A stretch of DNA of 32,000 nt from Candidatus Saccharimonadota bacterium (GCA_046350815.1 JAXLZO010000001.1:810001-842000), one strand, 5' to 3'; shown: positions 1 through 32,000, numbered from the stretch's first letter. The notes: generated from the sequence alone by a model not told the origin. Numbers and translations: made by a program.

Positions 1-166
1 CAATTTTTGCTGTTGCTTTCAGTCGTCCCCAACCTTCTTCCTGCCATTTCAAATTTTCTCTAATTTCCGTTGATATTTCAATCGGAAGTGAAACGAAGTG
101 CCAACCGCTTGGCGATGAATATTGCCAAGTCTTTGCTGAAAATTCATATTTTATTTTTCCATTCAT
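1..166 (-). CDS. DUF1905-like domain protein, N-terminal part only (gene continues beyond the left edge)
   Basis: Reverse-strand ATG at 166, open to the window edge. Translation MNGKIKYEFSAKTWQYSSPSGWHFVSLPIEISTEIRENLKWQEEGWGRLKATAKI shows the 'GWHFV.LP' pattern typical of DUF1905/YdeI N-terminal domains. Confidence 0.5.
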   Translation of the reverse strand, partial: MNGKIKYEFSAKTWQYSSPSGWHFVSLPIEISTEIRENLKWQEEGWGRLKATAKI

Positions 167-284
167 TTGTCTGTTTTCTGTGTCCGTTCTACAATGACCG
201 CTAACATGTAAATTCACGCAATGATTATCTTGTTTTTCCTTGCAGAGTCTATATTATTCGTCTAATATATTTCTATATGAAGTT

Positions 285-1130
285 ATGCGAATATATAAGA
301 CTCAAAAAGAATCTGTATGAGCTTTTTGAGATTGGCTCACTCTCAAAAGATATTCTCCAAAAACACACAAAACATATTTGAGTGTACTCAATATGTTTCT
401 GAAAGAAATATCTATAACAATATCAAAGATACAAAGAAATGATATTGAGGAGTATTTGCAACATAAAATCCAAAATGGACTCTCAGTATCGAGGCATAAG
501 CAATTAACCTGAGTATTGAAGTTATTTTTTTCTCGTTTTTTAGAAAGACAAGATATTATCTGGGATGAAATGTATCCAGAAAAATGAGAAACCAAGCTCC
601 CAAATATTCTCTCAAAGTCAGAAGTAAAAAAACTTCTCGATACACTCAATAACGTCAAGCATAAAACTATCCTTACGCTGATATATGCCACATGAATGAG
701 ACTCTCTGAATGTGTGAATCTTCAAATTGGTGATATTGATTCAAAAAGAATGACCATCAAGATCCGACAAGCCAAAGGAAAGAAAGATCGATATGTGCCA
801 CTTTCCCCAAAGCTTCTCGATCTTCTGAGAGTGTATTATCGGGAATATCATCCAAAACAATATGTATTTGAATGATGAGAATGATGAATCTACTCGGAAC
901 GAAGTGTGCAACAAATTATGAGGCAAGCATTGAACCGAGCATTGATTACCAAAAAAGCATCGGTGCACACACTCCGTCATAGCTATGCGACACACCTTCT
1001 GGAGGATGGGGTAGACGTACGCATTATCCAAGAATTTCTGGGGCATAGCCATATACGAACGACCCAAATATACACCCATATTAGCACTCCAATTCTCTCA
1101 AAGATAAAAAGCCCACTGGATGATTTATAG
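285..1130 (+). CDS. tyrosine recombinase / phage-type integrase (Xer-like)
   Basis: ATG 285, TAG 1128-1130, one frame with nine in-frame TGA. These include TGA 693-695 in the box-I 'ATGMRLSE' motif and four within 873-887 ('FEGGEGGIY'). The C-terminus [12 protein letters not shown]...[14 protein letters not shown] supplies the R..HxxR..H..Y catalytic set. The track's 906-1130 ORF is only the tail. Confidence 0.85.
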
Positions 1131-1229
1131 ATGTTGTATGATAATTGATTTTCTAAAAAATAAATTCAATATACGTCAAGTATTATTATTTTCTAGAAAT
1201 GTGAGAATATGGTAGAGTAGAGAAAAAAT

Positions 1230-2198
1230 ATGAATCCTCCCAAACTCGAACATTATGTAAATGATGTCTCCAAAGTCCTCTCTGAGTCAGTGCGCCATGA
1301 GGCAAATGAACGACTCAAGAATCATGACACACAAACAACCGTTCAATCAGTTGTCTATCTCTTTCCTCACCGTCAAGGTCGGGATCTTCTTGATATTGGC
1401 CTCGAGATATTCAATGAAAATGGTATCGGACAAAAAGATACCAACAATGGACTCCTCCTTATCGTTGCAACGGAAGAAAAGAAACTCCGAATAATCACAG
1501 GAAAAGGAATGGAATTCGAATGGAACACTGAGAAATGCAAATATATCGTGGAGCAAATTCTCCGCCCGCTTCTGAATGCTGGAAAATATGATGAGATGGC
1601 GAAAGCTTGGTGTGATTGTGTTGAAAAATGAGATAAATTAGTAATAAAAAAGACGAAAATTATTAAATATGCGAAGCAGCCGAAAACACAAAAACAGTGA
1701 GAAAATTATCTTATGTTAACACTAATAGCGTGCTTTATAGAGATAGTTGCATCTTTCCTTATATGACTATTTTTATATCATGGAATTGCTATATATATAG
1801 TTGCATTATTTCCGACTGTGTTGTGGGGTATTATTTTTCTTTGGTATTTTGTAAGTCAAAAAGAATTTACCCGATTAAAAGTGCTTTGAATACTATATGT
1901 ATTGTTATCAGCTCCATGGGTTTATTTTTTATGATCAGAATATCTTGATTTCTCGGCACATTGCGTTCAAGAGGAAAAATGCTTGAACACGGATGGGATA
2001 ATTAAAAAATGGTGAAAGTTACAGGCAATCCATCAGGCGGAGGTGGATCTTTTAATTGAAGAAGATAAAAGGCTACATCCAGAAAAATACCAGTCATCTT
2101 CTAATAGTTCTGATGACTCAGACTCTTCATGGTCTTCTTCAGATTCAGATTTTGGTTGAGGTGGTGGATCGTCCAATGGTGGTGGTTATGGAGATTAA
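1230..2198 (+). CDS. TPM-domain (YgcG/TLP18.3-like) membrane protein with Gly/Ser-rich C-terminal tail
   Basis: The track ORF 1230-1631 reads through TGA 1629-1631 and six more TGA to TAA 2196-2198. The N-terminus VNDVSKVLSE...NNGLLLIVATEEKKLRIITGKGME is the TPM fold signature. It is followed by hydrophobic TM segments and the tail SSSNSSDDSDSSWSSSDSDFGGGGGSSNGGGYGD, typical of this family. Confidence 0.8.
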
Positions 2199-2214
2199 TT
2201 CCTAATAGTAATGT

Positions 2215-2958
2215 ATGATTGATGTAAATACGTTTTTGCTGACTAATACACAAAAAAATATACAAAAAATGTATGACGAAATTCGTTTTGTTCCAACAAG
2301 TGCCATCGATGATCCTTGGGGTGGAATTGTTTTGTTTTTCTCAATAATGGGATGAATTACGTTGATGTTTCTATTATTCATGATGATGCCAGATCTTCTC
2401 ATGTTATGGATACTTCTTTGCGTACTGTTTCTTCCACTTTGCATATGAGCATTTAACACATCAAATTACAAGCAAAATCAACTTACCATGGCAATGCAAC
2501 TATATAGTAGTGAGAAGATAGATTTACTCAGAATGTATTCCTCGGTAGTATCTGATATGAATGTTGATTTCGTGGATCAAGAAATAAATCCAGAAAAGAT
2601 AATCGATATCGAGCAGGGAATTCGCAATCTTGGTAGCAGTATTGCAAGTATCTATATTTTATACAGAGATATGCTACGATCGAAGGTTAATCTGTATACT
2701 TTTTCTGATCAAACAATTCGCGCCAACTATCAAAATTTTCTCACCCAAGAGTGACTCTGGCTCACAGAATGCATTGCTTCATTTTCTCGCGATCTTGATA
2801 CCTGGATGACTCGTCATCATAGCGAGTTGGTACAGCTCAAAGATAGCGTGAATACACAAATGAAAAGTACGAATATGGTCGAATGAAAAGCAGCTCTTGG
2901 GCTGACTGAGGAGCGAATTTCGAAACTCTCTGAAGAAATTCCTATTTGTGTAAAATAA
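2215..2958 (+). CDS. hypothetical membrane protein, paralog A (TM region plus coiled-coil C-terminus)
   Basis: ATG 2215, TAA 2956-2958, same frame as track ORF 2488-2754, with four in-frame TGA. Hydrophobic stretch IVLFFSIMGGITLMFLLFMMMPDLLMLWILLCVLFLPLCIG. The C-terminal half is homologous to the next gene. Confidence 0.6.
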
Positions 2959-3941
2959 TGAATATGTTTGAAAATGAACAGCAATATACCATCAAAACAG
3001 CGGATGATATCAGAAAAATTCAGGAAGGATTTGTTCAAATGAATCCTGTGAGTAGTTCAGTTATGGTATCAGATAGCCAGAACGAAAGTATCGATCATTT
3101 TATTACGAATGAATATACAACAAAGATGCCATTGTGGTGAATTTATATGCTTTTTGGTATTTTAACGATGACTTCATTTAATGAAGGGATGCGATGAATA
3201 ATTATATGGTGTTTATTATTCATTGTTGTGTCACTGTTCTGAGTTTTCACTAAATGAGAAAGTAGTGAGATGAAAAAGATTCAAATAAATTGGTTGCGAC
3301 TCTATATTATATTTGGATATTTCTTGATGCCAATAAGTTTTTTGTATGAACCACTTTGGTTTTGATTCCCACTTTGGTTGATTATTTCTGCTGCATGCTT
3401 TTCAGTATGGGTAGTAGTAACATTTCGAGTTGAGAAAAATGTTAGATACTACATAGATACTTTCAAATTTGGCGTACAAGATTTACAGCAATTTCACTCA
3501 TCAGCCATTTTTGATATGTCGCTTGATTTTTATAGTCCTACGATTTATCCACAGCAAGTCATAAAAATACGAGATTCTATTGAGCGAGTAACTGCTCAAA
3601 TTCAACAGCTTTTGGAATTACAACATCGTATCAGTAATTATTATCAGAGATGGTTTGCAACATTTTGGTCTGTATTTTTCTCAAAAAAATTAAAAGAACA
3701 AATGCAATCTTTTTTCCGAAATGAAAGCAATCAATTGCTCATCTATGTGAATACATTCTCACAAGACCTGAATTTTTGGACAGAGAGACACAAGATGGAG
3801 CTAAGCCAATTGGAAGAAAATATAGACCAACAGAGAGAAGAAACAATTCTCCCAGAATGAAAACTTTCCCTGGAGTTGTCACAAGATCGAATTTCAAGAT
3901 TGACCCAAGAGGCTGATATGATCAGAGTCGCACAGAAATAG
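2958..3941 (+). CDS. hypothetical membrane protein, paralog B
   Basis: ATG 2958 overlaps the preceding TAA by 1 nt; TAG 3939-3941. It joins track ORFs 2946-3140 and 3378-3860 in one frame through TGA. Shared blocks with paralog A: FDMSLDFYSP/SDMNVDFVDQ, FSQDLNFWTERHKMELSQL/FSRDLDTWMTRHHSELVQL, EGKLSLELSQDRISRL/EGKAALGLTEERISKL. The G in the last block is a TGA in both copies. Confidence 0.6.
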
Positions 3942-4019
3942 CAATTAAAAAACATTGAAAACATACAAACATCATTGCATAAAAGCTATTTTTTCCTAGA
4001 ATGTTTGCAAAATTTTTCT

Positions 4020-5453
4020 ATGCATTCTCAATTTGAAATTGTGATGGGACTTGAGACACATGTTCGAGTCGCCTCACATACCAAGCTTTTTTGTTCTTGT
4101 GAAAATCAGCTCGAACTCGCTGATGAGCCAAATATTCGCGTTTGTCCGGTATGTATGGGTATGCCTGGTGCGTTGCCGGTGCTTTCGAAATGAGTTGTTG
4201 ATCTCTCTCTTAAGGCGAGTCATGCGCTCCGAATGGAGATTCATCAGGTTTCACGATTTGATAGAAAATCCTATTCTTATCCCGATCTTCCATCGGGTTA
4301 TCAGATTACTCAGCTCTATGAGCCAATCGCTACAAATGGTGAAGTTCGTACCATTATCGATGGTGAAGTGAAGACATTTCGTGTAAATCGTCTTCATATT
4401 GAAGCAGATGCTGGTAAACTCGTACATACTGGATGACTTACGCTTTGTGACTACAATCGTAGCGGGGCACCTCTTATGGAGATTGTTACTGAGCCTGATT
4501 TTCGCTCAAAAGCTGAAGTAATCGCCTATCTCGAAGAGCTTCAGAAGCTCATGCGTTGGTGTGGTGCATCCGATGCTGATATGGACAAGGGACAACTTCG
4601 CTGCGATGTGAATATCTCTATCCGACCACACGGTGATACGAATCTCTATAGTCGAGTGGAACTTAAAAATATCAATAGTTTCTCGGCTATTGGTCGAGCC
4701 ATTGACGTGGAATTTGCTCGTCAGATCAAGATTGTGTCGAATGGTGAAACGATCGATCAGGAGACTCGAGGCTGGGATGATGAGAAGTGAGTTTCACATT
4801 CCATGCGTTCCAAGGAAAATGCGATGGACTATCGATACTTTCCCGAACCAGATCTCCTTCCTCTCGTACTGGAACAATCTGAAATTGATAGCACCAAGAT
4901 TATTGAGTTGCCGGTTGATCGCCGAGTTAAATATCTTGGTTATGGACTCCTTTCGGATGATGCGAGAATTCTCTCGGATCGTAGAGAATTGTCAGATTTT
5001 TATGATAGTCTTGTCTCGATGACGAATGATCCAAAAAAATCCGCAAGTCTTATTACAACTGTACTTTTCGCTCTTATGAGCGAGCATCATGATAGTGGAG
5101 ACTTCTCGAATCTGAAATTTCAACCAAAAGATCTTGCAAGACTCTATGATCTCTTGAGAGATGACGCAATATCGTCTACGAATAGCAAGAAAGTTGTAGA
5201 AGTCCTCTATCTTGAAGGTGGTGATGTAGATAATATTATTGCAAAATATAGCCTTGGACAAACCAATGACAGTGATGCACTCCAGGCTATCGCTCAGTCA
5301 GTAATTGTTTCCCATCCGACTCAAGTCTCGGAGCTCAAAGCAGGCAATGTAAAACTTCTTGGTTTCTTGGTTGGTCAATGCATGAAAGCATCATCTTGAT
5401 CTGGTAATCCAAAGATTTTTAATGAAATTCTACAAAAAGAGCTTATGCTTTAA
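4020..5453 (+). CDS. gatB: aspartyl/glutamyl-tRNA(Asn/Gln) amidotransferase subunit B
   Basis: Track fragments 3975-4193, 4233-4436, 4476-4790 and 4803-5399 share one frame and join through TGA at 4191, 4434, 4788 and 5397. Product: [74 protein letters not shown] 4020 fits the family N-terminus better than TTG 3975. TAA 5451-5453. Confidence 0.95.
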
Positions 5454-5471
5454 TACGTGTTCCATTTTTCT

Positions 5472-6059
5472 ATGAAGACTCCAAATTACATACATCAAAT
5501 CGAACAACTCAAATCAGATGGTAAATATAGTGATGCTCATGACTATGCAATTGATGCGCTCAAAAAAAACACAGATGACTATAGGCTTTATGAGGAGCTT
5601 TCTGATATAGCTCTCTTTGAATGAAGGGTGAAGGATGCATACAACTATGTACAACTCGCTCAAAAAATTCATGCCGAATCCATGACAGGCAAATACCTTC
5701 TTGGATCTGTTTATGTTGCGCTTGGTGAGTTTGATAGTGCAATCAAACTACTCTCTGAAGCAAATACGCTCGTTCCCAATAATCCTGAGATACTTCGTCA
5801 TCTTGGTTGGGCATATGCATGTCAGGGTGAATACCCAAGATGAATATCTCACCTTCGAAGGGCTCATATTCTCTCGCCCGATGATATAGGTGTGAAAGAG
5901 GATCTCTGAATTTCACTCATGTCTTATGCTATACTCCTTCGATGATCATGATCAGTAGATAGTGAAATGGTCGAAGATATGCTTTCCGAAGGGGAAAAGC
6001 TCTTGATTTCAACCGGTGCACATCAGAAACTCGCTGAATTTCGAAATCTCCACCTATAA
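5472..6059 (+). CDS. TPR-repeat protein
   Basis: ATG 5472, TAA 6057-6059, five in-frame TGA, same frame as track ORF 5628-5843. Repeated 34-aa-like helical units: YLLGSVYVALGEFDSAIKLLSEANTLVPNNPEILRHLGWAYACQGEYPRGISHLRRA. Confidence 0.7.
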
Positions 6060-7300
6060 TGTTCTCCTCTCAATCTCTCCTTAAATCGCTGGATTTTTTC
6101 GTTTTCGATATTGCTTGAAGCGTTGTACATATCCTCTATTGTCGTAAAGATAAGGGGAATTTCTCCATAGCATGAAATGCACGTGTCCGTCTTCCAAAGC
6201 GGAGTATTGATAGGGGGGTGATTGCTGATATGCGAAGTATTATATTGACCCTCGAGCGTGGTATGCGACAGGCTACAAAATGAGTAGATGAAATGCCACA
6301 AGATGTTATTTTTGGGGTTCAGTCAATTGAACTCTTTGCAGATCATATTGGTATGACCTATGCTCGTGAGGATATTGATGCACCGATAAGCATGAGCGAG
6401 CTAGATGAGATGATGCTTCATATCGAACGAAGAGCACTTGAACGATCCGAAGGGAAAATCATCGAACGTTGGTGAACACTACCGACGAGCCTCAAGCTCT
6501 CAGCATCACTTCTCACTCATATCACGCTTGATGGAGCAAATCTTTCGAATCCTCTTGGTTTTAGTGGGCATCTTCTTCGGTTGAACCTTCTGAATGTATT
6601 TGCTGGGGCAAAACATCTCAATGCACTCTCAACGATCGCACGCCACCTCAATCTCCGAGTGATTTCACATTTACCCGCTCCATTAGCACTCTCAAAATGG
6701 GAGCAACTGCTTGATTATGAATCACATGAGGGGATTATGTTTTTAGATCTTGGATCATTTGCAACACAGGTGACTCTCATGCGAGATGCACAGATTATGG
6801 ATATAGCAACTCTTCCTTTCGGAACAAATGCTATTGAGCAAGCATTAAAAAAACAGTTTCCAAAACTTGATACACTCACGATTGAGCGATCTATGATTTG
6901 ATCAAGCTGTTTATGAGACCCCGATCAACACAAAGCATTCTTGCATCACATATGATCTTTTTGTGATATTCTTTCTCGTTCGGTTGAGGATATCATGCTG
7001 AAAAACTTTGGATGACTCTCTGACGTTCGTATTTTTTTGAGTGGAGTTTCTATTGATACTCTCTTTCCAACAACTCTCGTATCTCATCTTCAGGAGATTA
7101 CCCCTCAAAAAATCTTATTGGATTCCATAACAAAACTCTACCCACTTATTGGTGATGCTTTTGACTATGACCATGAAATAATTACGGAGTGATGCTATGC
7201 AACTGCTATTTGATTAGCTCTTGCTGGTTGCGATCTTGTAGATTTTCGTGAAGATCCAATCACTTCAACACTTAGAAAGGTAATCTACCAGTATGCTTAG
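6059..7300 (+). CDS. ftsA: actin-fold ATPase, FtsA-like (PilM-like not excluded)
   Basis: ATG 6059 overlaps the upstream TAA (TAATG); TAG 7298-7300. It joins track ORFs 6293-6475 and 6581-6901 in one frame. Phosphate-binding-like motifs FVFDIAGSVVHIL and IMFLDLGSFATQVTL, in an FtsA/PilM-type order. Confidence 0.6.
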
Positions 7301-8927
7301 ACAGTCGATTCACATCACGTATGAAACCCAGCTGTTGGAGCTCTATGATATATTATCACATGAGACGAACAAGGGAATAACACTCATTGTTGAATATCCG
7401 TGATTTTTTTCGCACCCCATCGTGTTGGAAGTGATGGTAAAAAAATTTAATAGTATTGATACGATTGCAACTGATGATCGAGCACTGCAGCATGTAGCAG
7501 TGCGTCTTGGGCTGAAATCTCTTCCTCTAGATAGTTCCGTTGTAGGAGATCTCCCACCAGCATCCGAAATACTCAAGCATAATTTTACAATTTTTGAGTA
7601 TTTTCTCTACGAATGTCGTCGTGGTGTGTGGCATGTTGGACGATTTTTTGCACGGAGCAAAAAACATCTCACGTATCGTCGACCCCTCAAGAGCTCTAAC
7701 ACTCTTCTTTTGATATTTTCTTTGAGCTTCTCTTTTTTGATTCTCATTTTTGTATTTTATTTTTCTGCAACCAGCACTACAGTAGAAATATTTCCAGAAA
7801 CAACAGTAAAAACATTGACAAGAAATCTTATTTTTACCACAACACCCAATCAATCTGCCTTCGCAAAGTCGAATGAAGTAGCTATGCTACCGTTGGATGT
7901 AATGGTTCATCTTGCAACTCCATTTGAAGTGAATTCTCTTGATCCGAATTCTGTGCGAAATGCAAAATGAATGGTAGAAGTGATAAATGAGCTCCCAACA
8001 CCTTCTCAGCTGCGCCCCGGAACGCGATTTACTTCTGAGGATGGCGTCCTTTTTAAAAGTCCTGGTTGGATTAAAATACCATGAATGGTTACAAGAAATG
8101 GCGAAGTGATCCCTGGAAAGATACAAATCCCACTTGTTGCTGAGAATGTCGATGAAAAGTGACGCATTATTGGTATACGATGAAACCTTAAGAGTGGTGC
8201 ATTTCTCTCGATACCGGGCCTGAAATTTAATAAAAGCAAAGTCTATGCTCAGGTTATAGGAGATTTTAGTGGTGGCGCTGATCCTACGAAAAAAGTACTC
8301 ACTCCAGAAACACTTGACCGTTTTAAAACTCTTTTTACAGAAAAACTTAAAAGTACAGCAAAGGACGAACTTGATAACACTCTTCGAAAGCATCCTGGTT
8401 ATAATTCATCAGAAGCCTGGAATATTATTCCTCTTTTCGATGTGTGGAAATATGAATTTTCTCCCATTGAGACCATTGATAATATCCTTCCAGGCGCAAG
8501 CGTCAGCAGTATTACTCTTTCAGGTAGTCTCCATCTTCGTACGTACGCCTACTCTTCTTCAAAAACAAAAGCGTATTTTGAGCAACTCTTCGATGCAAGT
8601 CTTCTTCCAGAGACTCAGACAATTGCATCACTCAATAACACGAATATATCTATTGAATCACTCACGCCATTGAGTCAAACAGGTGTTGAAAGTTTTAAAG
8701 CAACGATGAAGATGAATGGGAATATTGTGTATAATTTTTCAAACCCAACGAATCCACTTCTGCGTCAGATACGCAATCTGATTGTTGGTAGATCGAGAGA
8801 GGAGGCACTCTCAATTCTCAAGAATGATCCAAATGTTGCTGATGCGAAAATTAGTATATCACCCTTCTTTATGAATAAAGTTTCATCGAGACCAGATGCT
8901 ATTGATTTTGTGATTCGCACCAAATAA
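7293..8927 (+). CDS. large single-pass membrane protein, CPR-type 'baseplate-J-like' family suspected
   Basis: ATG 7293 overlaps the ftsA-like end by 8 nt; TAA 8925-8927. It joins track ORFs 7422-7970 and 8442-8927 through TGA. One TM segment (LLLIFSLSFSFLILIFVFYF). The extracytoplasmic block GMVEVINELPTPSQLRPGTRFTSEDGVLFKSPGWIKIPG resembles the 'G.V.I.N....Q.L...TRF...DG..F' block I recall from baseplate-J-annotated CPR proteins. That assignment is tentative. Confidence 0.55.
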
Positions 8928-8938
8928 TCCTCCCTATT

Positions 8939-9529
8939 ATGAATCATTCATCAAAGCATTTTGACGGTCAATATTCGAACGAGCAGATCTTATTAAAAAG
9001 ACATGAACATATAGTTGCTTTCCTACTTTCTCATATATCGTCATTTATTTCAGTACTCTGCCTTTCGCTTATAGCAATGTGGATAGTGCAATTTATCAGT
9101 GACTCTTGGGTGATGGCTTGGATCACTCTTTGTTGCATGATCATTCTATATGGTGCTTATAGCTTTCATCATTATCACTCAACGGTATTCTATATAACAT
9201 CACGTCGCATTATCTTTTTTACTACCAAAGGATTGTTTGGAAATCATCGTCGAGAAATTCGGCTTGAGAATGTGACGAGTATTCGAGCTATGAGACCTGG
9301 ATTACTCGCAAAAATATGTAAATTTGGCGATCTCTTTTTCAGCCAGGGCGGCGAAGAATTTCGCGTAAGCGGACTTCACCTTCATGATGAAATCCGATCT
9401 TATATTGGCCGAATTGTCGAGTATATCAAATCACATGGATATCCTGAACAATTTAGTATTTTTCGTTCCCGAAAAGAACGCCGACAAGACAAAAATATAG
9501 ATACCCAACAGAACGAAATGGATATATAG
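8939..9529 (+). CDS. bacterial PH-domain (bPH_2/YdbT-like) membrane protein
   Basis: Intact ORF with no TGA, ending in TAG. Two TM helices followed by YITSRRIIFFTTKGLFGNHRREIRLENVTSIRAMRPGLLAKICKFGDLFF, which is typical of bPH_2. Confidence 0.7.
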   Translation: MNHSSKHFDGQYSNEQILLKRHEHIVAFLLSHISSFISVLCLSLIAMWIVQFISDSWVMAWITLCCMIILYGAYSFHHYHSTVFYITSRRIIFFTTKGLFGNHRREIRLENVTSIRAMRPGLLAKICKFGDLFFSQGGEEFRVSGLHLHDEIRSYIGRIVEYIKSHGYPEQFSIFRSRKERRQDKNIDTQQNEMDI

Positions 9530-9540
9530 CGAAATTTTCT

Positions 9541-10551: not shown

Positions 10552-10659
10552 TATTGATATACAAGAATTCTCAAATCTTCTTTGTCGAGAGTGATTGTTT
10601 TGTAAATCTGATGATTTTCGTTACTATAGATAGCTATTTTACTTTTCAAATAATACGCT

Positions 10660-11625: not shown

Positions 11626-11641
11626 GTTTTGCTTTAAAGAG

Positions 11642-11675
11642 AAAAAACTCTTGTACAAGAGTTTTTTCTTTTTTT
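11642..11675 (+). terminator. rho-independent terminator after the DsbA-like gene
   Basis: Stem aaaaaactctt / aagagtttttt with a gtac loop, followed by a T-run (cttttttt). Confidence 0.7.
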
Positions 11676-11714
11676 CGTGAGAAAAATCATATAATAATTC
11701 CTTTTATTATTTTT

Positions 11715-11981: not shown

Positions 11982-11984
11982 ATT

Positions 11985-13229: not shown

Positions 13230-13235
13230 AGATAT

Positions 13236-20911: not shown

Positions 20912-20964
20912 AAGAGTATTATATGTGAATAAATAAACTTTCTCCATCATGAGATAAGTCATCA

Positions 20965-23595
20965 ATGCTTACATCCCTCCAAGACGGTGCAAAGGATGTT
21001 GTGAAGCGTATCTTTGGTCGTACTCATGCAATTCTAGAGCCATTTGCTCTTCCGCCTGAAGTGAATAAGCGGACAATGCAGATGCTTTCACAGTTCTATA
21101 TTGATAATGAGGTATATAATAGTGCCCTCTTTTGAGGACTGATTGACGATAAAAAACTCTGCTTTATTCTAGAGAAAAATCCACAATTTGCACAAGATTT
21201 TATTGTCAAATTTCTCGGGTATGCAAAACAAAGACAACAATGGGAACAAAAATTTGAGAAGGCAAAAGATGAAAAAAATCATTACCTCTCAGAAGAGTCA
21301 TTTTTTCATATTGAACAAGCAAATGAAGAATTCATCGAAAGTATTCGTGAATCAATGAGGGTAATTCCCATTGATTGTTACAAAGAAAAATTTGAAAATT
21401 TTGATGATGAAAGCGGTATGAGTAGAAAGAAATTTTTTGATGAGCTTCATTGATTGGAGTTATCTCTTGAGTCGTATAAAAAATCAATCGATCCACGATA
21501 TGTAGAACTCTATACTTTTCTCTATATTCGATATCTTTTTTACGCTAATATAACTCAAGATAAAGTAGATCAGTGAGATCAAGAATATTCTATTTATAAC
21601 ATAGAACGACTGAGAAATGTAGATTATATTTTGCAGGAGTTATCAAAACTTACGAATCATTCCAAGCAAAATAAAAAATGACCAACACTTGATATAAATC
21701 AAGAATTGAAATTTATTTTCTCATTGGATTCTCCTTATGATCCTTTTTCTCTGATAGAATCATCGAAACAGACAAAGTCTCTCTCATCATCCTTTGATCT
21801 TTTTTATCGTGATTATTTGTGACTCTGAGATATGATTCATACACAATCATCAATATCAGCAATTGCCACACCCTACCTTATTTCATCATATGATGATCTT
21901 GGCATCGCTGAAAATTATAATAGTCCACATGCATACTATCATCGCCCACTCCTTGATGATCCAATGAGGGCTGTAAAAATGATTGTCTACGGGAAACACA
22001 AGAAGACAAATACTCTAGCATACCGAGAACTGTATGAATTCCTCGAAAATCTTCATTATCAAAGTATTGTGGAAATGGATGTGTATAGCTTGCTAGCTCT
22101 TGAACAAAAGGATTTTGCATCTATTTTGAGTGCTGCTTTTCGCAAGCAAGCACCTGAGTCTAGAGAGGCAGCAGAGATATATTTTCAAGAATTTCAAAAT
22201 GATTTTTTTCAAGAATTTGAATCTATTATGGATGTAGATATTAAATCTATTTTTCCTTCATTTCCGAAAAATAAGCGATTTGCAACGATCAAGGATTATG
22301 CCGCATGGATTCATAGTGCCTATCCGGTCGGGAACCGTAAAAATGTTCATGATATATTGCTATCGGAAGCTGATATGTTGCGTGCAAATCTCATGAAAAA
22401 TACGATTGCATGGATCGATATACCAGTCATTCGTCGTCATCAAAATCTTGCTACAACACATCAAATGTTACTGATAGATTATCTCAAGAAATTCCATAAT
22501 AATTATTGATCATCATTTGAACAACAACATAGCTTGAATAAGTTTATCTTTCACACAAAGATTGCGTGAACATCGCCTGAAATAAGCGTTGATATACACT
22601 TTGAAATCAGTTCACGTATCAAGGATCTTGCCTCAGTTCTGGTGAAGATGCTTGGTGACCCAAAGTATAACTATGTTGATTCTCTGAGAGATCTCTCCGG
22701 TATGAGATGTATTATTGATGGTTATTACGGTGTTGGTGATCCGTTTGATGGTTGATTTATCCTCCTTAAGGATTCAAATAATTTTGCTCAGCAAGCATAT
22801 AATCAATTTGTGCTTGCTCTAGTATGATTTATCGAAAAAAATTCCTTGATTTATAAATTCAAGGGAACACCATCGAATCCTGCTGCACACAATGAACTTG
22901 TTCAAAAATTGAACATGATATTTCCACATCTTGAACTCAAGACGCGTTCTCTACGAGATTATACTGGCAAGACTGATAATGGATATACTGATGCCAGTAT
23001 CACTGGTAATCCCCTGATTATGGATGACTCACAAGAGAATGGTCATTCTCAAGTACGTACTGAAATACAAATAATGACCAGATCTATGAAGAGTGATCTT
23101 CGATGACCAGCATCCTGAGCATGTTATAATGCAAAAAAATTTATGACACTTTTGAGTCGTCAGAATCGAATATTTTCCCTGAAAGATTTTTATCGAATAT
23201 GCGCATCAAATGCGCTTCATCAAGATGGCATTGCTTCATCATGAATGGAACCGGAGGATTTTTTAAAATATCTTCTTTGCAAATGATATCTTTCTGCTTA
23301 CACGTATTGACCTGATCAAGAAGGAATTCTCTTGAACGCAAATGAATATGAATATCGATTGGATGAGATACGTGCAAATGGTAGCTCTATCCGTCAAAGC
23401 GCAAATTTAAAAAAGATGTCTATTTTTTGAATGAAGATGGACATTTCTGCAACTCTTTATCCGAAAAATCAAAATATACTTGATCAGTATGGCAATATTC
23501 GCAAATGAAAAAAATGGGAGGAGATTATAAAGGCTTTTTACCTGAATCCCAAACTGTGCAGTTGAGATCAAAATGTTTCTCTCGCCAAAAAATAA
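20965..23595 (+). CDS. large hypothetical protein (876 aa) with a divergent RelA/SpoT-like nucleotidyltransferase core in the C-terminal third
   Basis: ATG 20965, TAA 23593-23595. It joins track ORFs 21832-22509 and 22846-23106 in one frame through about 17 TGA. Candidate RSD motifs in canonical order: ISSRIKDLASVLVKM (about 22606), LRDLSGMRCII (about 22690), NGYTDASI, and VRTEIQIMT (23062-23079; the canonical form is ExQxRT). The N-terminal ~520 aa has no recognisable domain. Confidence 0.6.
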
Positions 23596-24250
23596 ATCAT
23601 TTGGCAGCCTCCATTCAAGGATCAATAATCGATGCTTGTTCAAGTTGAGGGAATTCATTTTTGATTTCTTCAAAAGTTCCTGTGATGATAGGGTAGTGAG
23701 TGCAACCAAGAATAATAGCATCTATGTCTCTGTTTTTATCTGGTATACGATGGAGCGCACCACGAATAAGATTTTGTTGCTCCGATGTATTATTGGATTC
23801 TATTGCCTGAACGAGTCATGGTATAGATATATTTATGACTCATACTTTGTTTCATGCAATCTGATGTATATAGTGCGTATAGATTCATGATTTTTTGGTA
23901 GCATCTGTTGATATTACAAGGACATTTTTAAAATTACCATCTCGCACTGCCTCGCACGCTGGATAGGTGACACCGAGAATTCGTTGATACTTTGGAAGAG
24001 TATTTTGTAAATGACGGAGTGCATGAACACTCGCTGTATTACATGCGAGTATCACAACATTACATCATTGATCAAAAAGATGACTGACTCATTTCTTCGT
24101 GAGAGCTATGATTTCCTCACATTCTCGATCTCAATAGGGACAATTTTCATAATCTGCATACACGATGGTCTCTATATCTGGATTATGAACAAGAAAACTG
24201 TCTCTCACATGATATGCTCAAGAGCCAGAATCAAAAAATCCTACTTTCAT
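23525..24250 (-). CDS. murI: glutamate racemase
   Basis: Reverse-strand ATG 24250, TAA 23527-23525, 241 aa, about 10 in-frame TGA, no standard-code ORF in the track. Motifs: MKVGFFDSGSGAY, YADYENCPYGDR, VILACNTASVHAL, ILGCTHYPI (the two catalytic Cys motifs). Confidence 0.9.
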
Positions 24251-24286: not shown

Positions 24287-26008
24287 TTATTTTTGTATTT
24301 TACCAAGAAATAAAGTTTCTCGTTTGGTAAAGTATTTTGTTGACGCTAGCAGAAGTATACGTGATATCCACATGGCAGTGAAGAGTGAGAGCACAATACC
24401 AATACCAAGCATTAAACCAAATCATTTGATAAGATTCACTCAAAATACGAACAGGATAACAGCTGATGTGAGTGAGGTGACATGAGAGTCCCATATAGCA
24501 CTCCACGATTTTTCAAATCCGATAATAGTTGCATCGATAAGGTTATGTTTTTCACGAACCGCTTCTTTCATTCGCTCGAAAATCAATATATTTGCATCGA
24601 TCGCAAGTCCTATAGAGAGAATCATACCAGCAATAGACGCAAGCGTAAGTACAATACCAAATGATTTAACAATAGCAGTTAAAATCAAAGCATATATAAT
24701 AAGTGCAACGCCAGCAATAAGTCAGGATACACGATAAATCATCACAAGAAAGATAATAATCGCAGCCAAGCCAATGGCTCCAGCCACAATAATTACATGA
24801 AGTGCATCTCGTCCAATTTTTGCATCAATGGTTCGCTCGCTTGAGAGGTAGATCGGTGCAGGGACAATACCAGTTTTGATATCTTGTGCAGTTCTTCTTG
24901 CTTCCTCTATGGTATATGAGCCAGTAATAACCGCTGAACCATCAGTTATGCGTGCCTGAATGGTTGGTGCAGTGATCAGCTGCCCTCAGACAAATATGGC
25001 AAGCTGTTGCCCAAGAAGACGTTCTGTAAGATCACTAAATATTTTCTTTCCTTCGTCATTGAAAATAAGTTGTATCTCTGGTTGGGATTGTTGATTGAAT
25101 ACCATCTGCGCGTTCTGGAGATATTGGTCATTGAGAACTGCACCACTTGCTGTTTTTGCAACCTGCCACTGACTTGGCTCTTGATTTACCCAGATGACAC
25201 TATAGTCATAGACTTTGGTGTCTTTTCCATCAATTTTTGTTCAAAGAATACTGTTCCATTTCACAACAGCATATCCTGTTGGTGCTGTATTCCCCGAGAG
25301 AGAAACGGTGTTTTGTAGTTTTGTTGTCACCACTTCACTGAGACTTGATCCACTCAGTGATTCGATGCCCGCATATTTTACATACTCTGGGAGATTTTCG
25401 AGAGTTCCAGTTCCATTTTCAAAGCTGATATTCTCATGAGTTGTAGAGTATTTGTCACCGAGATCTTTAAAAGATGTCCCAGAAAGTGCTTTTTGTCGGA
25501 TTTCTTGTGCTATCGCTTTTCTCTCTGCTTTATCCTCTTCGGTAATAGTTGTCTTCTTTTCCTTGAATTCGAGGGTAACTACTTTTCCAATAGTTTCTTT
25601 TGCTTGTTTAATATACTCATTATTCTTCTTTTGTTGTTCTTCTTTGGATGTATTTGCATCTCGGGCAATTGTTGGTATTTGAACAATAATATGACTCTCT
25701 CAACCATATTGCGCGCTGGTAATAGTTGGCTCAGTGGTTCCGAGACTATTGACGCGTTTTTCGATGATTTTCTTGAGACCATCAGATACTTCATTTTTAT
25801 TGAGTTTTGGATCTTGTTTGAGTTTTTCTTCCATATCGATACGGTAGTCGAGTTCAACTCATCCATTAAGATCAAGTCCAAGTTTATATTCCCCATGAGA
25901 TAGGCCTTCAGGAAGTGTGATTCCAAAATGTGACCATGGAATAACAAAAAAGAGTGATACGACTGAGACAATTCCAATAAAAATAAGCCTTCCGGTGAGT
26001 GATTTCAT
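24287..26008 (-). CDS. secD: protein translocase subunit SecD
   Basis: Reverse-strand ATG 26008, TAA 24289-24287, 573 aa. The track shows only 24440-24688. Indexed translation gives N-terminal TM, YKLGLDLNGGVELDY, LAIFVGGQLITAPTIQARITDGSAVITGSYTIEEARRTAQDIKTGIVPAPI, LTLASIAGMILSIGLAIDANILIFERMKE, and GVNLIKGFGLMLGIGIVLSLFTAM. Confidence 0.92.
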
Positions 26009-26094: not shown

Positions 26095-27438
26095 TTACTT
26101 GATATGAAGTTTCTTCATAAGTGGTGTTATTGTGAGTGCTTTGATAAAGAGTGTGAAAACAACACAACCAACAGTGAGTCCAAGAATAAATTCTTGAATA
26201 CTGAGCGGAAATTGCCAGCCAGGGAAGCTCAGATCCACAGGAATAAGAAGTGCCATGATAATAGCAAGAGCACCACGAAGGCTTCACCAAGAGAGAAGGT
26301 GCTGCCAACTTTTTGGAATTTCCTCTTCTATATTGAGTGCATTAAACGGTGTAATAACACTATATACACTCAGTGCTCTCGCTATCATGACGGCAATAAT
26401 TGAAATAGCTACAGGAATGATGAGATAATCCCAATGAACTCAGAGCTTAATAATCATGATACCGAGGAGCAAGAAGATGATAGCGTTGGTAACAAAAGCC
26501 ATATAATCCCAAATACTATGCATGGTTGATTCAATTTCTGGTGACAAATGTTTGCGCCCTATGGATCCAAAAACAACAGCCGCAATGGTTGTAGCGATCA
26601 CTCCTGAAAGTGGCACAACAAAATGGGAAATTCCCTCAGCAAGGAGAAAAGTGACATGAGCAAGGAGTATGGATATGGTGATTTCGACAAGTGGGGCTCA
26701 TTTAATCTTTTTTACAAAATTGGAAGCAAGAAGTCCAACTATCGCACCGAATAATCCGCCGAGTAAGAGCATAGAGAGGAATGATAGAATTCCCTTGAGC
26801 GCTATCCATATCCCTCCGTGATGACTCGCAAAAAAGTGATCAAGTAAATTAGTACCGTGAGATCCATGATATCCGCTCACCTCTATGACTACCCCAAGGA
26901 TAACAAGAAAGAATGCAAGTGCTGTTCCATCGTTGAAGAGGCTTTCTCCTTCAAAAATGAGGGCTAGTCTTTTTGGTGCATTACATTCCTTGAAGAGTGC
27001 AAGTACCGCTACAGGATCCGTAGCAGATATGAGGGCACCGAAGAGAAAATAAATAATAAATGGTATCTGGATATCAAAAATATAGGTTAAAACTACATAC
27101 ATGATAGTACCAGTGATGAGTGCTGAAATAATGAGCGATAGAATAGCAAGTAATCCTATAGACCATTTATTCGCCATGAGATCCTTTATCCTCATGTTAT
27201 ACCCACTCTCAAAGAGGAGAATTGGTAGAAATACATAAAAAAGCATTTCTGGACCAAGTTCAAACGACAATAGGAAGGAAAGTCTCGGCTCATGACTTAT
27301 AATCCAACCAAGAATGAGTCCAAATGCAACAAGAAGTACTGTAAAAGGTATTCGTGTCTTCTTTGCAAGAAGATAGATGCCCATAGAGAGCGAGAGAAGC
27401 GCAAGACATGAAAATGTCTGTAAATAAAAATCGGTCAT
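26095..27438 (-). CDS. nhaP: CPA1-family Na+/H+ (cation/proton) antiporter
   Basis: Track ORF 26698-27438 continues through TGA 26700-26698 and three more to TAA 26097-26095 (447 aa). Polytopic membrane protein with LFGALISATDPVAVLALF and FEGESLFNDGTA, typical of NhaP/NHE exchangers. Confidence 0.8.
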
Positions 27439-27505: not shown

Positions 27506-27979
27506 CTAGTAGTGTTGTATCGAACTCAGGTAAGCTATCGCAATAGCATCAGCAGCATCATCAGGCTTTGGAGGGTTTGCTAGATTGAAGAGTGATTGTA
27601 TTGCTGATTGCACTTGTTGTTTGGTAGCTCTTCCATTTCCACAAATTCCTTTTTTTACTTGAAGCGGGGTAAATTCGGAGCGCGCAATATTATTTCTTGT
27701 GAGAAGTTCAACAACGACTCATCGACATTCTGCAACAGAAATCCCAGTGGTTATATTACTTCCAAAATAGAGCTTCTCGATACCAGCTCTCTCAATAGTT
27801 GGGTATTTTTGGAGAAGACTTTCAAGATCGTCACGAATTTCTCGTAGTTTCTCGCCGGCATTCATTTTGGGTGGAGTAGCAATTACTCCATAGTCAATCA
27901 GGACTATTTTCCCCTTATTTATTTCAACAAGAGCATATCAAAGTGTTGTTGTTCCTGGGTCGATTCAGAGTGTGAGCAT
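27506..27979 (-). CDS. ruvC: crossover junction endodeoxyribonuclease RuvC
   Basis: Reverse-strand ATG 27979, TAG 27508-27506, 157 aa. Translation [74 protein letters not shown] falls on the LGIDPG and LGY glycines. Confidence 0.9.
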
Positions 27980-27982
27980 GGT

Positions 27983-28522
27983 TTATGGATTAATCCTTGT
28001 TATTTGAATAGGAGTCATACTATCACCTATTGATCGAATTCGTAAATTTGCACCATAATCATTCCATGTTGATGGTGATGACCAAGTATAATAGGTAAAA
28101 AGCTGCGATGGATACTGTCACATATATCATGATAAATTTAGAAAATTTAAGTTTGTTAATGTGATTAATTGATTTGATGGAGCACTATTCATATGGTGTC
28201 AGTTAAGGTTCAAATATTCTAAATTAATAAGGTTTCCAAAAGTGTTTGGTAAGCTCGTAAAACTTCCGTATGCAATATCTAAATGTTTAAGGTTTACTAA
28301 GTTATCAATACTGCTCGGTATGTTATTTAGATAAGCTCATCAAGAGCTTGGTCATCAGATGGACAAACGTTCAAGCAGGTTAAGAGATGTTATGATTTCT
28401 GGAAAACTATTAAATCGAGTATCAGTGATGCGCAAATCTTTTAAGTTTGTCATTCACGATAGGGTAGTTGGAAGGGAGTTGAGTGGATATCAAGTGAGAT
28501 TTAAATATTCTAATTGGTCTAG
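27983..28522 (-). pseudogene. C-terminal LRR portion of the pilin-leader/FN3/LRR gene, separated from the upstream part by a compensating frameshift pair
   Basis: Same frame as 28547-29998, ending TAA 27985-27983. Translation NLTGYPLNSLPTTLSGMTNLKDLRITDTRFNSFPEIITSLNLLERLSIGG..NLVNLKHLDIAYGSFTSLPNTFGNLINLEYLNLNG..LTNLNFLNLSG. There is no own start until ATG 28453, and the LRR register continues from the upstream part. Confidence 0.6.
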
Positions 28523-28546
28523 ATTACCAACGCTATCAGGGAGCGA

Positions 28547-29998
28547 ATTAAACGCGCTCGCTATGGATGATCTCTGCAATTCGATAGTACGCAGCTTCCG
28601 TAGATTACCGAATTCTTCAGGAAGACTTGTGAAATTATTAGATCCTCAACTGAGATATTGAAGCTCTCGAAGTTTTGTTATAGCGATCGGAAAAGTACTT
28701 AAAGATTTATTAGAGATATTAATATTTGTTTGCGTACACCATGTTCATTTATCATATGTTACATTTGTAAGGTTGTTGAGTTGAATAACCTCTGCATCAC
28801 TGAGATCATCAATACATGGAATATGTGCATACGCTTGAATAATTCATGAATAAATACTTTCTCAATGACTATTTATTGCTTTTACCTTGTAAAAAGTAGT
28901 GACATCATTTGTTCTTCATGTGTGTGTGTATCCCGTATTTGATATGTTGATGATTTCTGTATATGTTCCTGATAGACTCGTTGACCACGCAAGAGTATAT
29001 TGTGTTGCTCATGTAACATAGTCCCATGTAAGCGAAATAGATCCGCTTCATCCAGTTGTCTGAAGATTTTCTGGTGTTTGAGGTACGCTCCCACCATTAC
29101 TCCCACTACTCCCACTATTCATCCCCAAAAGACTCTTCTCATCAAAGCTTCCATTCTTCAGAGCATTGAGTGATCCAGTAGAGATATCCGTGGATACATA
29201 TTCATCAGCTCACTGTGATCCTACTATGATATCAAGCGTACTTGCATCACTCAAAGAGATATCTCTACTTCCTGTACCACTCACTCCATTCTGAAGAGGT
29301 TGCTTACTTCCCTTGGAGAGAAAGATTCAAAGCCTATCTCCTGCAGAGTAGGGATATCTCTTGGAGAGATCAATAGAACTGCTATCGAGAGCATAGGCTG
29401 TATCAAATGGATACATGGTATCTCAGGCGTACGCCTGAGATACTCTCATTCCTTCCATTGTTCCTTCTGTTGCTTCGCGAAGTGAAGCAGAGAGTGTATC
29501 TCAAAAATTTGAGAAACTTCCAATGTTTGCAAGATCTCAGAGAGTGGATGGAAGAGATTGCTTCGCAATCTCAATACTCCTCTCAAATCTTGGATTCTCA
29601 AGGTATGCCATGAACTGTGCACTATCGTAGTGTTGATTGACTCGATAGGTATAGGGTATATTGTCTTTGGGATCAAAGATTTTATCTGATCCATACCCGA
29701 GAGGATTCACCAGAGTAGTATTCATGAATCCTTGGTATCCAATGAATGATCCACTCACACTCAGAGAGACACTATCTGCTATAGGTGTAGGAAGTAATCG
29801 AAGCTGTGCACTGGTAATTCTCGCACTCTCTGACAATGTCTTAATATCACTAATTCTCTTTCCATCTCTTGCCACTGATGACTCATGACTCATCACGACA
29901 AACCCTATCACGGAGAGTATAGAGAGTATGGTGATGACTACTATGAGTTCGGTGAGGGTGAAGGCGGAATGCTTTTTCACCGAAGAGAAGATTTGCAT
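28547..29998 (-). CDS. type IV pilin-like (prepilin N-terminal leader) surface protein with Gly/Ser linker, FN3 domain and leucine-rich repeats (5' portion up to the frame break)
   Basis: Track ORF 29537-29998 starts MQIFSSVKKHSAFTLTELIVVITILSILSVIGFVV, a class III prepilin leader plus hydrophobic helix. It reads through TGA to TAA 28549-28547. FN3-like segment PENLQTTGGSGSISLTWDYVTGATQYTLAWSTSLSGTYTEIINISNTGYTHTGRTNDVTTFYKVKAINSHGESIYS (about 29083-28847), then LRRs LRELQYLSGGSNNFTSLPEEFGNLRKLRTIEL. Confidence 0.75.
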
Positions 29999-30137
29999 AG
30001 TATACGATGATAATAAAATACAAGGTGTATGTGTATGGTAGTAAGAATATCACAGTTCTTATGAAAAGTAAAAAATACCCAATGAGAAGTTGAGTATTTT
30101 TTGTAGACAAACGGAGTTTTAGTTTTTGGTATAGGTT

Positions 30138-32000
30138 TTACTTTTTTATAGAACTACCCATTTGATTCTGGGTTGTTGTTTGTTGTGCTAACTTCTTTGC
30201 TCTTTCCTCATCTTTCTGAGCTTTGATCTTCTCTTTGTGTGCTTCCTGGTTTTGTTTGAATTTCTTTTCATCATCTGTCACTTTGTTGCCGTAGTCATTG
30301 ATTTTTTTCTCTACAAATTCTCGTGGTTTTGCGTATTTTTCTCGAGAAATAGCACGGATTTTTACTGGGTCTTGCTTTGGTACTGTCAGATGATCATTAA
30401 TCGGAGCAAAGGTTGTTGCGGAGAATACTGGTGATGGCATACCATCAATGAGAAGTTTTGTATAGATATCATATTTTCTCAGATTTTGGAGGTCTTGTGC
30501 GGATATAACATCTTCATCACCCATAACTTCCACCATTTTTGGGGCATCTTCTGGGCCGACTTGAAATGAAATTGTGGATCCTACGTTACCAAATACAGCT
30601 CACTGAACTACCTCAGACATCTGAGATATGTATTGATTTGCCATTACAAGTGAGAGTCGATATTTGCGTGCTTCTGAGAGGATGGTTGCAAAGGAATCAG
30701 TAGCAAAGTTCTGAAATTCGTCTACATAAAGGAAGAAGTCTTTACGATCTTTTTCAGGAATATCAGCACGAGTCATCGCGTCGATCTGGAATTTCGTTAC
30801 CATCATAGATCCGAGAAGAGCGGAAGTATCTTCACCAATACGACCTTTTGAGAGATTGATGATACAGATTTTTTGATTATCCATGATCCATCTGAGGCTG
30901 AATGGATTTTTTGGTTGTCCGAGGATATTGCGCATCAGGGGGCTGGAGAGGAATTGTCCAACCTTGTTGAGAATCGGCCCAGCCGCCTCGACCATTTGAT
31001 TCGGTGCCATAGCTTCATACTCTGAGAGCCAAAACTTTTTGAGGAGAGGATCTTTGACTTTATCGATGATTTTTCTCCTATACGACGCATGAGTGAGAAC
31101 CACGGGGATGGACATAATCGTCTCATCACCAACATCGAGAAGTGATAGTACCGTGTTTCTGAGGATGTGTTCCAGACGTGGTCACCAAGAATCTCAGAAA
31201 ATTCTTTTAAAGACACTCACAAGACCAGATGCTACAATAGGCTGCAGATCTCTATGGACACTCTCAAGCATGTTAAATCCGATAGGATAGTTGAGATCCG
31301 TCGGATCAAAAAGTACCACATCATTTGTTCTACTTTTTGGTATCGAAGCGAGTATCGTTTCGGCAAGATCTCCATGCGGATCAATAAGCCCAACGCCGCG
31401 TCATTTCACAATATCATCATAGATCATGTTCTCGAGGAGTGTTGATTTCCCCATACCTGTTTTTCCGATGATATAGACGTGACGACGACGATCGAGAAGT
31501 GGTGAGCCAAAACTTTTTTGAGTTCCTCGAAAATTGGTTTTTCCAATAGGTGTCAGAGTATCATCGTCTTCTATGAGTGGGAGATTCGCTGGTGGTTCGA
31601 ATTTTTTGGAAGTTACCCAATTGATACCGGGAGTTTTGACGTAGAGTGTAGGTAAATGAACGAGACCTGCTACTTCGGCACTACAAAAATACCATGGATG
31701 AAAATGTTCTCGTTTTGCTACTCGATCACCCGATATGGGTGCTATTTTATCTAAGACAAAGCCATTACGATCAGGAAGATTGAATATATTGAGCGCACCA
31801 ACCATTTCTCTGATATGACTCTTCGCTTGGATAGGATCATTCTCATAACTTACGACTGCGAGTGAGGTATAATAACCAAATCATGCGAGTTTTTGCTTGA
31901 TAGCGAGATCGAGATCCTTGTCTCCTTTATCTCATTCCGTATGACGTGTTTTCACATCCTCTGAGGTGGCAGGAGGACTAAAAATCATTCAAAATCACCG
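30138..32000 (-). CDS. TraD/VirD4-like type IV secretion coupling-protein ATPase (TrwB/TraG-D_C type); N-terminus beyond the right edge
   Basis: Track ORFs 30138-30536, 30600-31115 and 31401-31805 are one frame joined by TGA and open to 32000; TAA 30140-30138. Walker A RHVYIIGKTGMGKSTLL, Walker B FFLYVDEFQNFAT, then RKYRLSLVMANQYISQM..VFGNVGSTISFQVG. Lys/Glu-rich low-complexity C-terminal tail. Confidence 0.75.

Follow-up and report, generated by a model that had tools for sequence, protein, structure and literature searches.

Recoding of UGA to glycine in the Gracilibacteria group has been known since 2013. The resulting code, translation table 25, is that of Gracilibacteria (BD1-5) and Absconditabacteria (SR1), GTDB class JAEDAM01. 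A tRNA-Gly(UCA) is recognized by G1:C72, C2:G71, G3:C70 and U73 (PMC8629427), and a further variant, in which CGA and CGG are read as Trp, has been described in Absconditabacteria, with CGG also passing from Arg to Trp in some Gracilibacteria (Shulgina and Eddy 2021, PMC8629427).

The window analysed here, the whole 32,000-nucleotide stretch, comes, with a probability of roughly 0.97, from the chromosome of a Candidatus Gracilibacteria bacterium that uses table 25, with UGA encoding glycine and UAA and UAG alone as stops. Matching proteins carry the GenBank label "Candidatus Gracilibacteria bacterium" (Patescibacteria/CPR), and translations with UGA read as glycine are identical to MFO0764014.1 (gatB), MFO0764019.1, MFO0764023.1 and MFO0764034.1. 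Because of this identity, the use of UGA as Gly in the present genome is already known. A preliminary description of the window had proposed it, and every check it suggested that could be run agreed with its prediction.

Each frame contains 258-345 TGA, as against 122-172 TAA and 88-117 TAG. Once TGA was dropped as a stop, the longest ORF grew from 262 to 928 aa, and ORFs of at least 150 aa covered 98% of the window rather than the 30% obtained with table 11; dropping TAA or TAG instead gave a longest ORF of merely 262-350 aa. With TAA and TAG as the sole stops, a revised set of 27 genes occupies 95% of the window; antisense ORFs at 2202-2465, 5470-5928 and 14628-14888 were judged spurious and left out of it. 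The genes and the repeat array are as follows, with in-frame TGA codons and stop codons.

1-147, minus strand: 5' part of a gene running off the left edge, read from the sequence; 2 TGA.
285-1130, plus strand: tyrosine recombinase/integrase (Pfam Phage_integrase); 9 TGA, including 693-695 (AT-G-MR box) and those in 873-887; stop TAG.
1230-2198, plus strand: TPM-domain membrane protein (Pfam TPM_phosphatase); 7 TGA, one in the C-terminal FG-X-GGGSSNGGG tail; stop TAA.
2215-2958, plus strand: membrane paralogue A (BLASTP against paralogue B); 4 TGA; stop TAA.
2958-3941, plus strand: membrane paralogue B; TGA at PE-X-K; stop TAG.
4020-5453, plus strand: gatB (Pfam GatB_N and GatB_Yqey); TGA at 4191, 4434, 4788 and 5397; stop TAA.
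5472-6059, plus strand: TPR protein (TPR_11 match in Logan fragments of identical DNA); 5 TGA; stop TAA.
6059-7300, plus strand: gene without firm function; 10 TGA.
7293-8927, plus strand: gene without firm function; 5 TGA.
8939-9529, plus strand: gene without firm function, weak bPH domain; 0 TGA.
9541-10551, plus strand: tsaD (Pfam TsaD); 10 TGA, including 9670, 9964 and 10090; stop TAG.
10660-11625, plus strand: DsbA-like thioredoxin; 3 TGA.
11715-11981, plus strand: YggT; 1 TGA.
11985-13229, plus strand: ftsW/rodA family gene (Pfam FTSW_RODA_SPOVE); 15 TGA; stop TAG.
13296-13817, plus strand: ndk (Pfam NDK); TGA at 13584-13586 (LV-G-PT); stop TAA.
13863-14528, minus strand: HD-domain protein (profile match).
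14533-15060, minus strand: hypothetical membrane-anchored protein (ORF).
15125-16513, plus strand: Bac_transf sugar transferase (Pfam); 8 TGA; stop TAA.
16834-19599, plus strand: ResIII/DEAD helicase (profile match); 31 TGA; stop TAA.
18531-19577, plus strand: helicase repeat array of five tandem ~72-aa units (216-nt period); four TGA sites per unit.
19634-20911, minus strand: murD (Mur_ligase_M and Mur_ligase_C); 8 TGA, three in the N-terminal IY-X-K-X-RVGA-X motif; stop TAA.
20923-23595, plus strand: 890-aa protein with no assigned function and a weak RelA_SpoT match; 20 TGA.
23525-24250, minus strand: murI (Asp_Glu_race); 10 TGA; stop TAA.
24287-26008, minus strand: secD-type gene (profile match); 7 TGA; stop TAA.
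26095-27438, minus strand: Na+/H+ exchanger; 3 TGA; stop TAA.
27506-27979, minus strand: ruvC; 3 TGA, including 27965-27967 (L-G-IDPG); stop TAG.
27983-29998, minus strand: pilin-like protein with an N-terminal methylation motif and leucine-rich repeats; 21 TGA.
30138-31988, minus strand: type IV coupling-protein-like ATPase; 6 TGA.

The 27 genes contain 204 in-frame TGA codons and not a single in-frame TAA or TAG. Of the 26 complete genes, 19 stop at TAA, 7 at TAG and none at TGA, as had been claimed, although this result is partly one of construction, the gene models having been defined by those two stops. Every TGA coordinate quoted earlier for gatB, tsaD, ruvC, ndk and the integrase is in frame, and the four integrase TGA within five codons are confirmed by the reading TGA TGA GAA TGA TGA at 873-887. 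The Pfam alignments run through the TGA codons from one end of the profile to the other (GatB_N 2-276/277, TsaD 2-263/264, FtsW 3-354/356, RuvC 2-145/148, NDK 1-135/135), and profile C-termini are attained, for example in GatB_Yqey (1-148/148). Judged by sequence, then, UGA is a sense codon in the window. Table 11 yielded fragments and no full-length homologues, and public table-11 calls on identical DNA cut gatB into four. The remark that several genes are nearly invisible under that table holds for TsaD, FtsW and MurI, in which the longest run free of TGA is 55-66 aa, but is less apt for MurD (211 aa) and SecD (152 aa).

Among the five codons read as Gly in the window, TGA is the most frequent (204, followed by GGA with 178 and GGT with 166). 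GGN accounts for 4.4% of codons and TGA for 2.0%, and we take their sum of 6.4% to be an ordinary bacterial Gly content.

A substitution scan with all 20 residues, in which bits were summed over 28 TGA sites in TsaD, FtsW and RuvC, placed Gly first in each of the three domains and about 40 bits above the runner-up (G 612.4, A 571.9, S 569.6, T 567.6, C 562.1, R 551.0, W 531.9). Every TGA-spanning Pfam domain likewise scored higher with Gly than with Trp, by ~155 bits in total. With TGA read as X, G and W, respectively, the scores in bits were 141.7, 147.4 and 135.5 for Phage_integrase; 188.8, 215.1 and 182.7 for TsaD; 260.6, 280.4 and 246.8 for FTSW_RODA_SPOVE; 125.5, 131.7 and 125.0 for NDK; 177.8, 191.7 and 172.5 for Bac_transf; 56.3, 59.7 and 50.6 for Asp_Glu_race (murI); and 115.6, 128.1 and 113.6 for RuvC. 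The NDK gain of +6.2 bits bears out the reading of the LV-G-PT site as Gly.

Of the 24 TGA sites aligned to the best solved homologues of TsaD, RuvC, MurD and the integrase, 12 face Gly and none faces Trp. Three solved TsaD structures have Gly at the three sites proposed as invariant glycines and at two more, and solved RuvC structures have it at all three RuvC sites. The integrase AT-X-MR box aligns with YGAGLR and YGSGLR, its box I site being Gly in XerC-like and IntI4 structures, and for MurD, 3lk7 has Gly at three of the four TGA sites aligned with it. The idea that TGA falls on invariant glycines thus stands for the cited TsaD, RuvC and integrase sites but does not extend to all TGA codons, about half of which lie in variable columns where the residue is not callable site by site. 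In the N-terminal G-K-G-RVG-A-G motif of MurD, a region outside the phmmer alignment, we take the TGA residues to be Gly from knowledge of the motif. Overall, TGA columns aligned to Gly, neither to Trp nor to homologue C-termini.

The comparison was extended to gatB from 37 recoded genomes (the window included) and 43 standard-code outgroups. Opposite the 507 TGA codons of the recoded genes, the outgroups show Gly 56.8% of the time (background 6.8%) and Trp essentially never; at the column of position 5397, Gly is present in 43 of 43 outgroups. Where outgroup columns are at least 80% conserved, TGA faces Gly in 28 of 32 cases in the window's group and, for the low-GC group, in 192 of 234, and GGN codons follow the same pattern. 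TGA positions are either kept between relatives or replaced by GGN: ortholog codon pairs comprise 74 of TGA with GGN and none of TGA with TGG. Several ACN, AGY and TCC codons were also flagged in this gene; a Thr/Ser reassignment was rejected in favour of conservative lineage-specific substitutions in one gene. In a neighbour-joining tree of GatB, a single-gene distance tree, the 38 recoded sequences group together to the exclusion of the 43 outgroups, and the window's GatB lies within this clade, all 38 members of which use sense TGA. It is 62-66% identical to every other species representative except one. This placement and the GenBank lineage name both fit the earlier attribution of the window to the Gracilibacteria/Absconditabacteria code. 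One genome, L060, whose gatB lacks TGA, was considered as a standard-code close relative and rejected, as ORF coverage of its 21-kb locus rises from 0.51 with table 11 to 0.93 without TGA as a stop.

The same exchange is seen inside the window. Over five units and four sites, the helicase array holds 19 TGA and one GGA; the latter, at 19249-19251, is the repeat counterpart of the TGA at 19033, exactly as the preliminary description had it. The tandem membrane paralogues it had pointed out are 30% identical over 144 aa (BLASTP, E 7e-20), and their shared TGA is found where VE-X-K of paralogue A aligns with PE-X-K of paralogue B. At the level of sequence, TGA swaps with GGN, never with TGG, both within the five-unit repeat and between relatives.

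ARAGORN found no tRNA gene in the window, Rfam no RNA element, and its genes include no release-factor gene. The relative L022, whose GatB is 53% identical to that of the window, has, at 12686-12761, a class I tRNA whose anticodon is UCA and which shows G1:C72, C2:G71, G3:C70 and U73; this relative was the sole source of a tRNA(UCA) found. This relative and the literature suggest that a dedicated tRNA-Gly with anticodon UCA would decode UGA, that it would bear these same four features as its glycyl-tRNA synthetase identity set, and that release factor 2 (prfB) has probably been lost, because of which UGA would no longer compete as a stop. The window carries neither a tRNA nor a release-factor gene, and there is a slim chance that this moderately GC-rich (38%) lineage, with its rather divergent GatB, decodes UGA otherwise, for example with release factor 2 kept and context-dependent dual use of UGA; occasional UGA stops, or Gly/Trp ambiguity through U34 wobble, may also occur.

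Under table 4, as used by Mycoplasmatales and several insect endosymbionts, UGA would be Trp. This code shares a clearly sense UGA and TAA and TAG as the only terminators, and some public calls on identical DNA adopt it, such as the Logan/ENA proteins P0002 and P0016. Yet it is highly improbable here, being refuted by the sequence evidence: at TGA sites Trp ranks among the poorest of the 20 residues, 80 bits under Gly; no TGA column aligned to Trp, and the conserved gatB Trp column remains TGG in 37 of 37 recoded sequences; TGA-TGG ortholog pairs are absent; Trp content would rise from 0.9% to 2.9%; and tRNA-Trp genes in relatives still have the anticodon CCA.

Glycine at UGA could also be combined with the reported Arg-to-Trp change of CGA and CGG in the sister lineage, or of CGG alone. 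We give this very little credence, as CGA is the commonest Arg codon in the window (128, versus 14 for CGG), and in conserved gatB columns of 14 genomes of the window's group, one gene being covered, CGA faces Arg in 44 of 64 cases and CGG in 18 of 21, like CGT and CGC, with no Trp. Because CGA and CGG are still Arg, table 25 alone suffices for the window.

Finally, a standard code with TGA as real stops, arising from pseudogenes, sequencing errors or, at some sites, programmed readthrough or selenocysteine, would account for the fragments that table-11 pipelines do yield, such as the 57-aa GatB piece MCA9378237.1 ("hypothetical protein") and the four gatB pieces called in Logan, but its probability is practically negligible and it is refuted because no TAA or TAG lies inside the frames and TGA positions are conserved or GGN-replaced across 37 genomes, with profiles matched at full length and the frame kept on either side of every TGA, a sequence identical in three independent assemblies, no RNA element in the window by Rfam, and TGA columns of Gly, not Cys or Sec.

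Public versions of these genes coexist with Gly (GenBank), with Trp (Logan, ENA) and as TGA-truncated "hypothetical proteins" (several sources); the Logan contigs that carry the TGA-free gene 8939-9529 are identical to the window and span 176-13845. A table 11 reading of the window is wrong, and a table 4 reading places Trp in place of Gly at 204 sites. Further analysis of the window calls for ORFs bounded by TAA and TAG only, with TGA read as Gly. The value of the finding is practical rather than scientific, and it is essential for annotating the window.

Among known systems, the table 4 lineages (Mycoplasmatales, Entomoplasmatales and insect endosymbionts) share with the present genome a captured sense UGA and a small genome, here ~1.28 Mb in one contig, but differ in reading it as Trp, not Gly, and belong to another phylum. 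The Absconditabacteria variant shares the background of UGA as Gly and differs in its Trp reading of CGA and CGG, codons that are abundant and aligned to Arg in the window. The table 25 lineage of Gracilibacteria and Absconditabacteria matches in its sense UGA at Gly positions, in genes that stop only at TAA or TAG, in the agreeing GenBank lineage name, in the position of the window's GatB inside an all-recoded clade, and in a relative's tRNA(UCA) with Gly identity elements. No substantive difference from it was seen; the window has 38% GC versus 21-29% in the low-GC relatives, a value inside the range of 0.21-0.53 of the table 25 groups (PMC8629427).

Within the window (GC content 38%), TGA far outnumbers the other stop triplets in all six frames, with 258–345 occurrences per frame beside 122–172 for TAA and 88–117 for TAG. 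Once TGA leaves the set of stops, the longest open reading frame (ORF) grows from 262 to 928 aa; with TAA or TAG removed in its place, it does not exceed 350 aa. The preliminary description had proposed that UGA is read as glycine (translation table 25) and that complete coding sequences end in TAA or TAG, never TGA. Under table 11 (the standard code), ORFs of at least 150 aa occupy 30% of the window; with TGA as a sense codon they occupy 98%. The corrected set of 27 genes covers 95% of the length and holds 204 in-frame TGA codons and no internal TAA or TAG; all 26 complete genes terminate at TAA (19) or TAG (7). Each coordinate that had been quoted for a TGA codon is indeed an in-frame TGA.

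For a neutral Pfam search, TGA was written as X in the window proteins. The profiles spanned the TGA codons from end to end, and TsaD, FtsW and MurI contain no TGA-free piece longer than 55–66 aa. UGA is a sense codon in the window.

Pfam profiles matched across TGA codons in window proteins (X at TGA)
GatB_N: profile positions 2–276 of 277
GatB_Yqey: profile positions 1–148 of 148
TsaD: profile positions 2–263 of 264
FTSW_RODA_SPOVE: profile positions 3–354 of 356
RuvC: profile positions 2–145 of 148
NDK: profile positions 1–135 of 135
Bac_transf: profile positions 1–179 of 179

Internal repeats bear on the same codon. A 216-nt (72-aa) unit, present in 4.9 tandem copies that match at 84% of positions, makes up the C-terminal third of a ResIII/DEAD helicase (18531–19577), and no Pfam profile matches this region. 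Its five units of ~72 aa each contain four TGA sites; as had been noted for one of these sites, the codon is exchanged for a glycine codon, giving 19 TGA and one GGA in total. Two tandem membrane paralogues (2215–2958 and 2958–3941; 30% identity over 144 aa, E 7e-20) likewise share a TGA at the aligned E-X-K position.

A competing assignment, tryptophan (table 4), was weighed against glycine by profile scores. Glycine outscored tryptophan in each domain spanning TGA, with a summed gain of ~155 bits. We then joined TsaD, FtsW (residues 1–390) and RuvC, which together contain 28 TGA sites, and substituted every one of the 20 residues: glycine gave 612.4 bits, followed by A (571.9), S (569.6), T (567.6), C (562.1), N (560.0), R (551.0), W (531.9) and L (529.8), and it was also the top residue in each of the three proteins taken singly. 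In solved structures, glycine occupies TsaD sites 44, 86, 141, 184 and 225, the integrase box I site, all three RuvC TGA sites and three of the four MurD sites that align. Overall, 12 of 24 aligned TGA sites carry glycine in the solved homologues and none carries tryptophan; the sites without glycine are variable positions or loops. One TGA lies inside a glycine-rich tail, FG-X-GGGSSNGGG. GGN makes up 4.4% of window codons (6.4% together with TGA) and TGG 0.9%; tryptophan would reach 2.9% if TGA encoded it.

A GatB scan with one genome per GTDB species yielded 80 loci. The 36 closest (L001–L036) and a further locus, L060, belong to metagenome-assembled genomes labelled Candidatus Gracilibacteria, "Peribacteria" or Patescibacteria. 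Each of the 36 gatB genes has 1–28 in-frame TGA codons and no in-frame TAA or TAG, and none of the 43 standard-code outgroups has an in-frame TGA in gatB. In L060, gatB lacks TGA, yet TGA serves as a sense codon in other parts of the locus. Opposite the 507 gatB TGA codons of the window and the 36 relatives, the outgroup residue is glycine in 56.8% (background 6.8%). In columns at least 80% conserved among outgroups, glycine stands opposite TGA at 28 of 32 sites for the window's moderate-GC group (192 of 234 for the low-GC group), and GGN codons give the same alignment profile. The conserved tryptophan column is TGG in 37 of 37 recoded sequences. When orthologous codons of the window and the relatives are paired, TGA stands opposite TGA 54 times, opposite GGN 74 times and opposite TGG never. 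We consider the reading of UGA as glycine in the window nearly certain (probability about 0.97). TGA usage differs widely inside the window's group: in L004 (52% GC), gatB contains only two TGA codons and 89% of the locus still lies in table-11 ORFs. Coding-density heuristics would detect recoding poorly in genomes such as L004 and L060.

Neither a tRNA gene nor an Rfam match occurs in the window. In the 10-kb flanks read for the relatives, the L022 locus includes a 76-nt tRNA of class I whose anticodon is UCA (12686–12761; Rfam tRNA model, 44 bits) and which has G1:C72, C2:G71, G3:C70 and discriminator U73, the identity set used by Shulgina and Eddy to call tRNA-Gly(UCA) (PMC8629427). This tRNA is located 1.3 kb downstream of gatB, in a Gracilibacteria genome of low GC content (22%); its ARAGORN label, tRNA-SeC, rests purely on the anticodon. 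The relatives' tRNA-Trp genes retain anticodon CCA. RF2 loss is a reported companion of UGA-to-Gly recoding, and for the source organism we infer both a decoder tRNA and the loss of RF2.

In a neighbour-joining tree of GatB, the 38 recoded sequences group together as a single clade. The nearest species representative, L001, shows 92% GatB identity (the next nearest, 62–66%) and shares the gene order integrase, TPM gene, paralogues, gatB. Divergence between window 193–5530 and L001 4124–9525 is mosaic: DNA identity is 97.6% across the integrase and the first part of the TPM gene (integrase protein, 99.4%) and only 86.7% in gatB, and it falls to 74%, or alignment fails, in parts of the TPM gene and both membrane paralogues. 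Homology to L001 begins abruptly at window 193, and a Logan contig begins at 176. Possibly the integrase marks a segment that is mobile or was recently exchanged, beside fast-evolving surface genes.

Two other loci stand out in the window. One is a pair on the minus strand (27983–31988): a TrwB/TraD-like coupling-protein ATPase and, next to it, a protein of 671 aa that combines leucine-rich repeats with a type IV pilin N-terminal methylation motif; together they could form an apparatus with which an episymbiotic CPR bacterium attaches or transfers DNA. An 890-aa protein (20923–23595) has a sub-threshold RelA_SpoT match as its sole hit (22 bits, residues 661–728).

UGA recoding in the Gracilibacteria group has been in the literature since 2013. 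Glycine translations are exactly identical to the GenBank records for GatB (MFO0764014.1), TsaD (MFO0764019.1), NDK (MFO0764023.1) and RuvC (MFO0764034.1), labelled "Candidatus Gracilibacteria bacterium" (contig of 1,283,673 bp), so the recoding has already been applied to this very genome. Reading anything else in the window correctly depends on this recoding. The warning that automated table-11 annotation would report this locus as poor in genes or pseudogenised is borne out by Logan contigs 100% identical to window 176–13845, which call gatB as four fragments. Tryptophan translations of the same genes are present in Logan and ENA, and MCA9378237.1, a GatB piece of 57 aa truncated at TGA, is listed as a "hypothetical protein" from a Peregrinibacteria bacterium. 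For GatB, TsaD, NDK and RuvC, glycine forms (GenBank), tryptophan forms (Logan/ENA) and fragments cut at the first TGA occur together in every 90%-identity cluster. Window 13845 is the end point of two independent Logan assemblies made from different runs; it falls in the 45 nt that separate the convergent ndk and HD-domain genes, where a repeat, hairpin or strain junction could lie behind the break.

In Absconditabacteria, an additional reassignment of CGA/CGG from arginine to tryptophan has been reported (PMC8629427). CGA and CGG align to arginine in the conserved gatB columns, and that reassignment therefore does not apply here.
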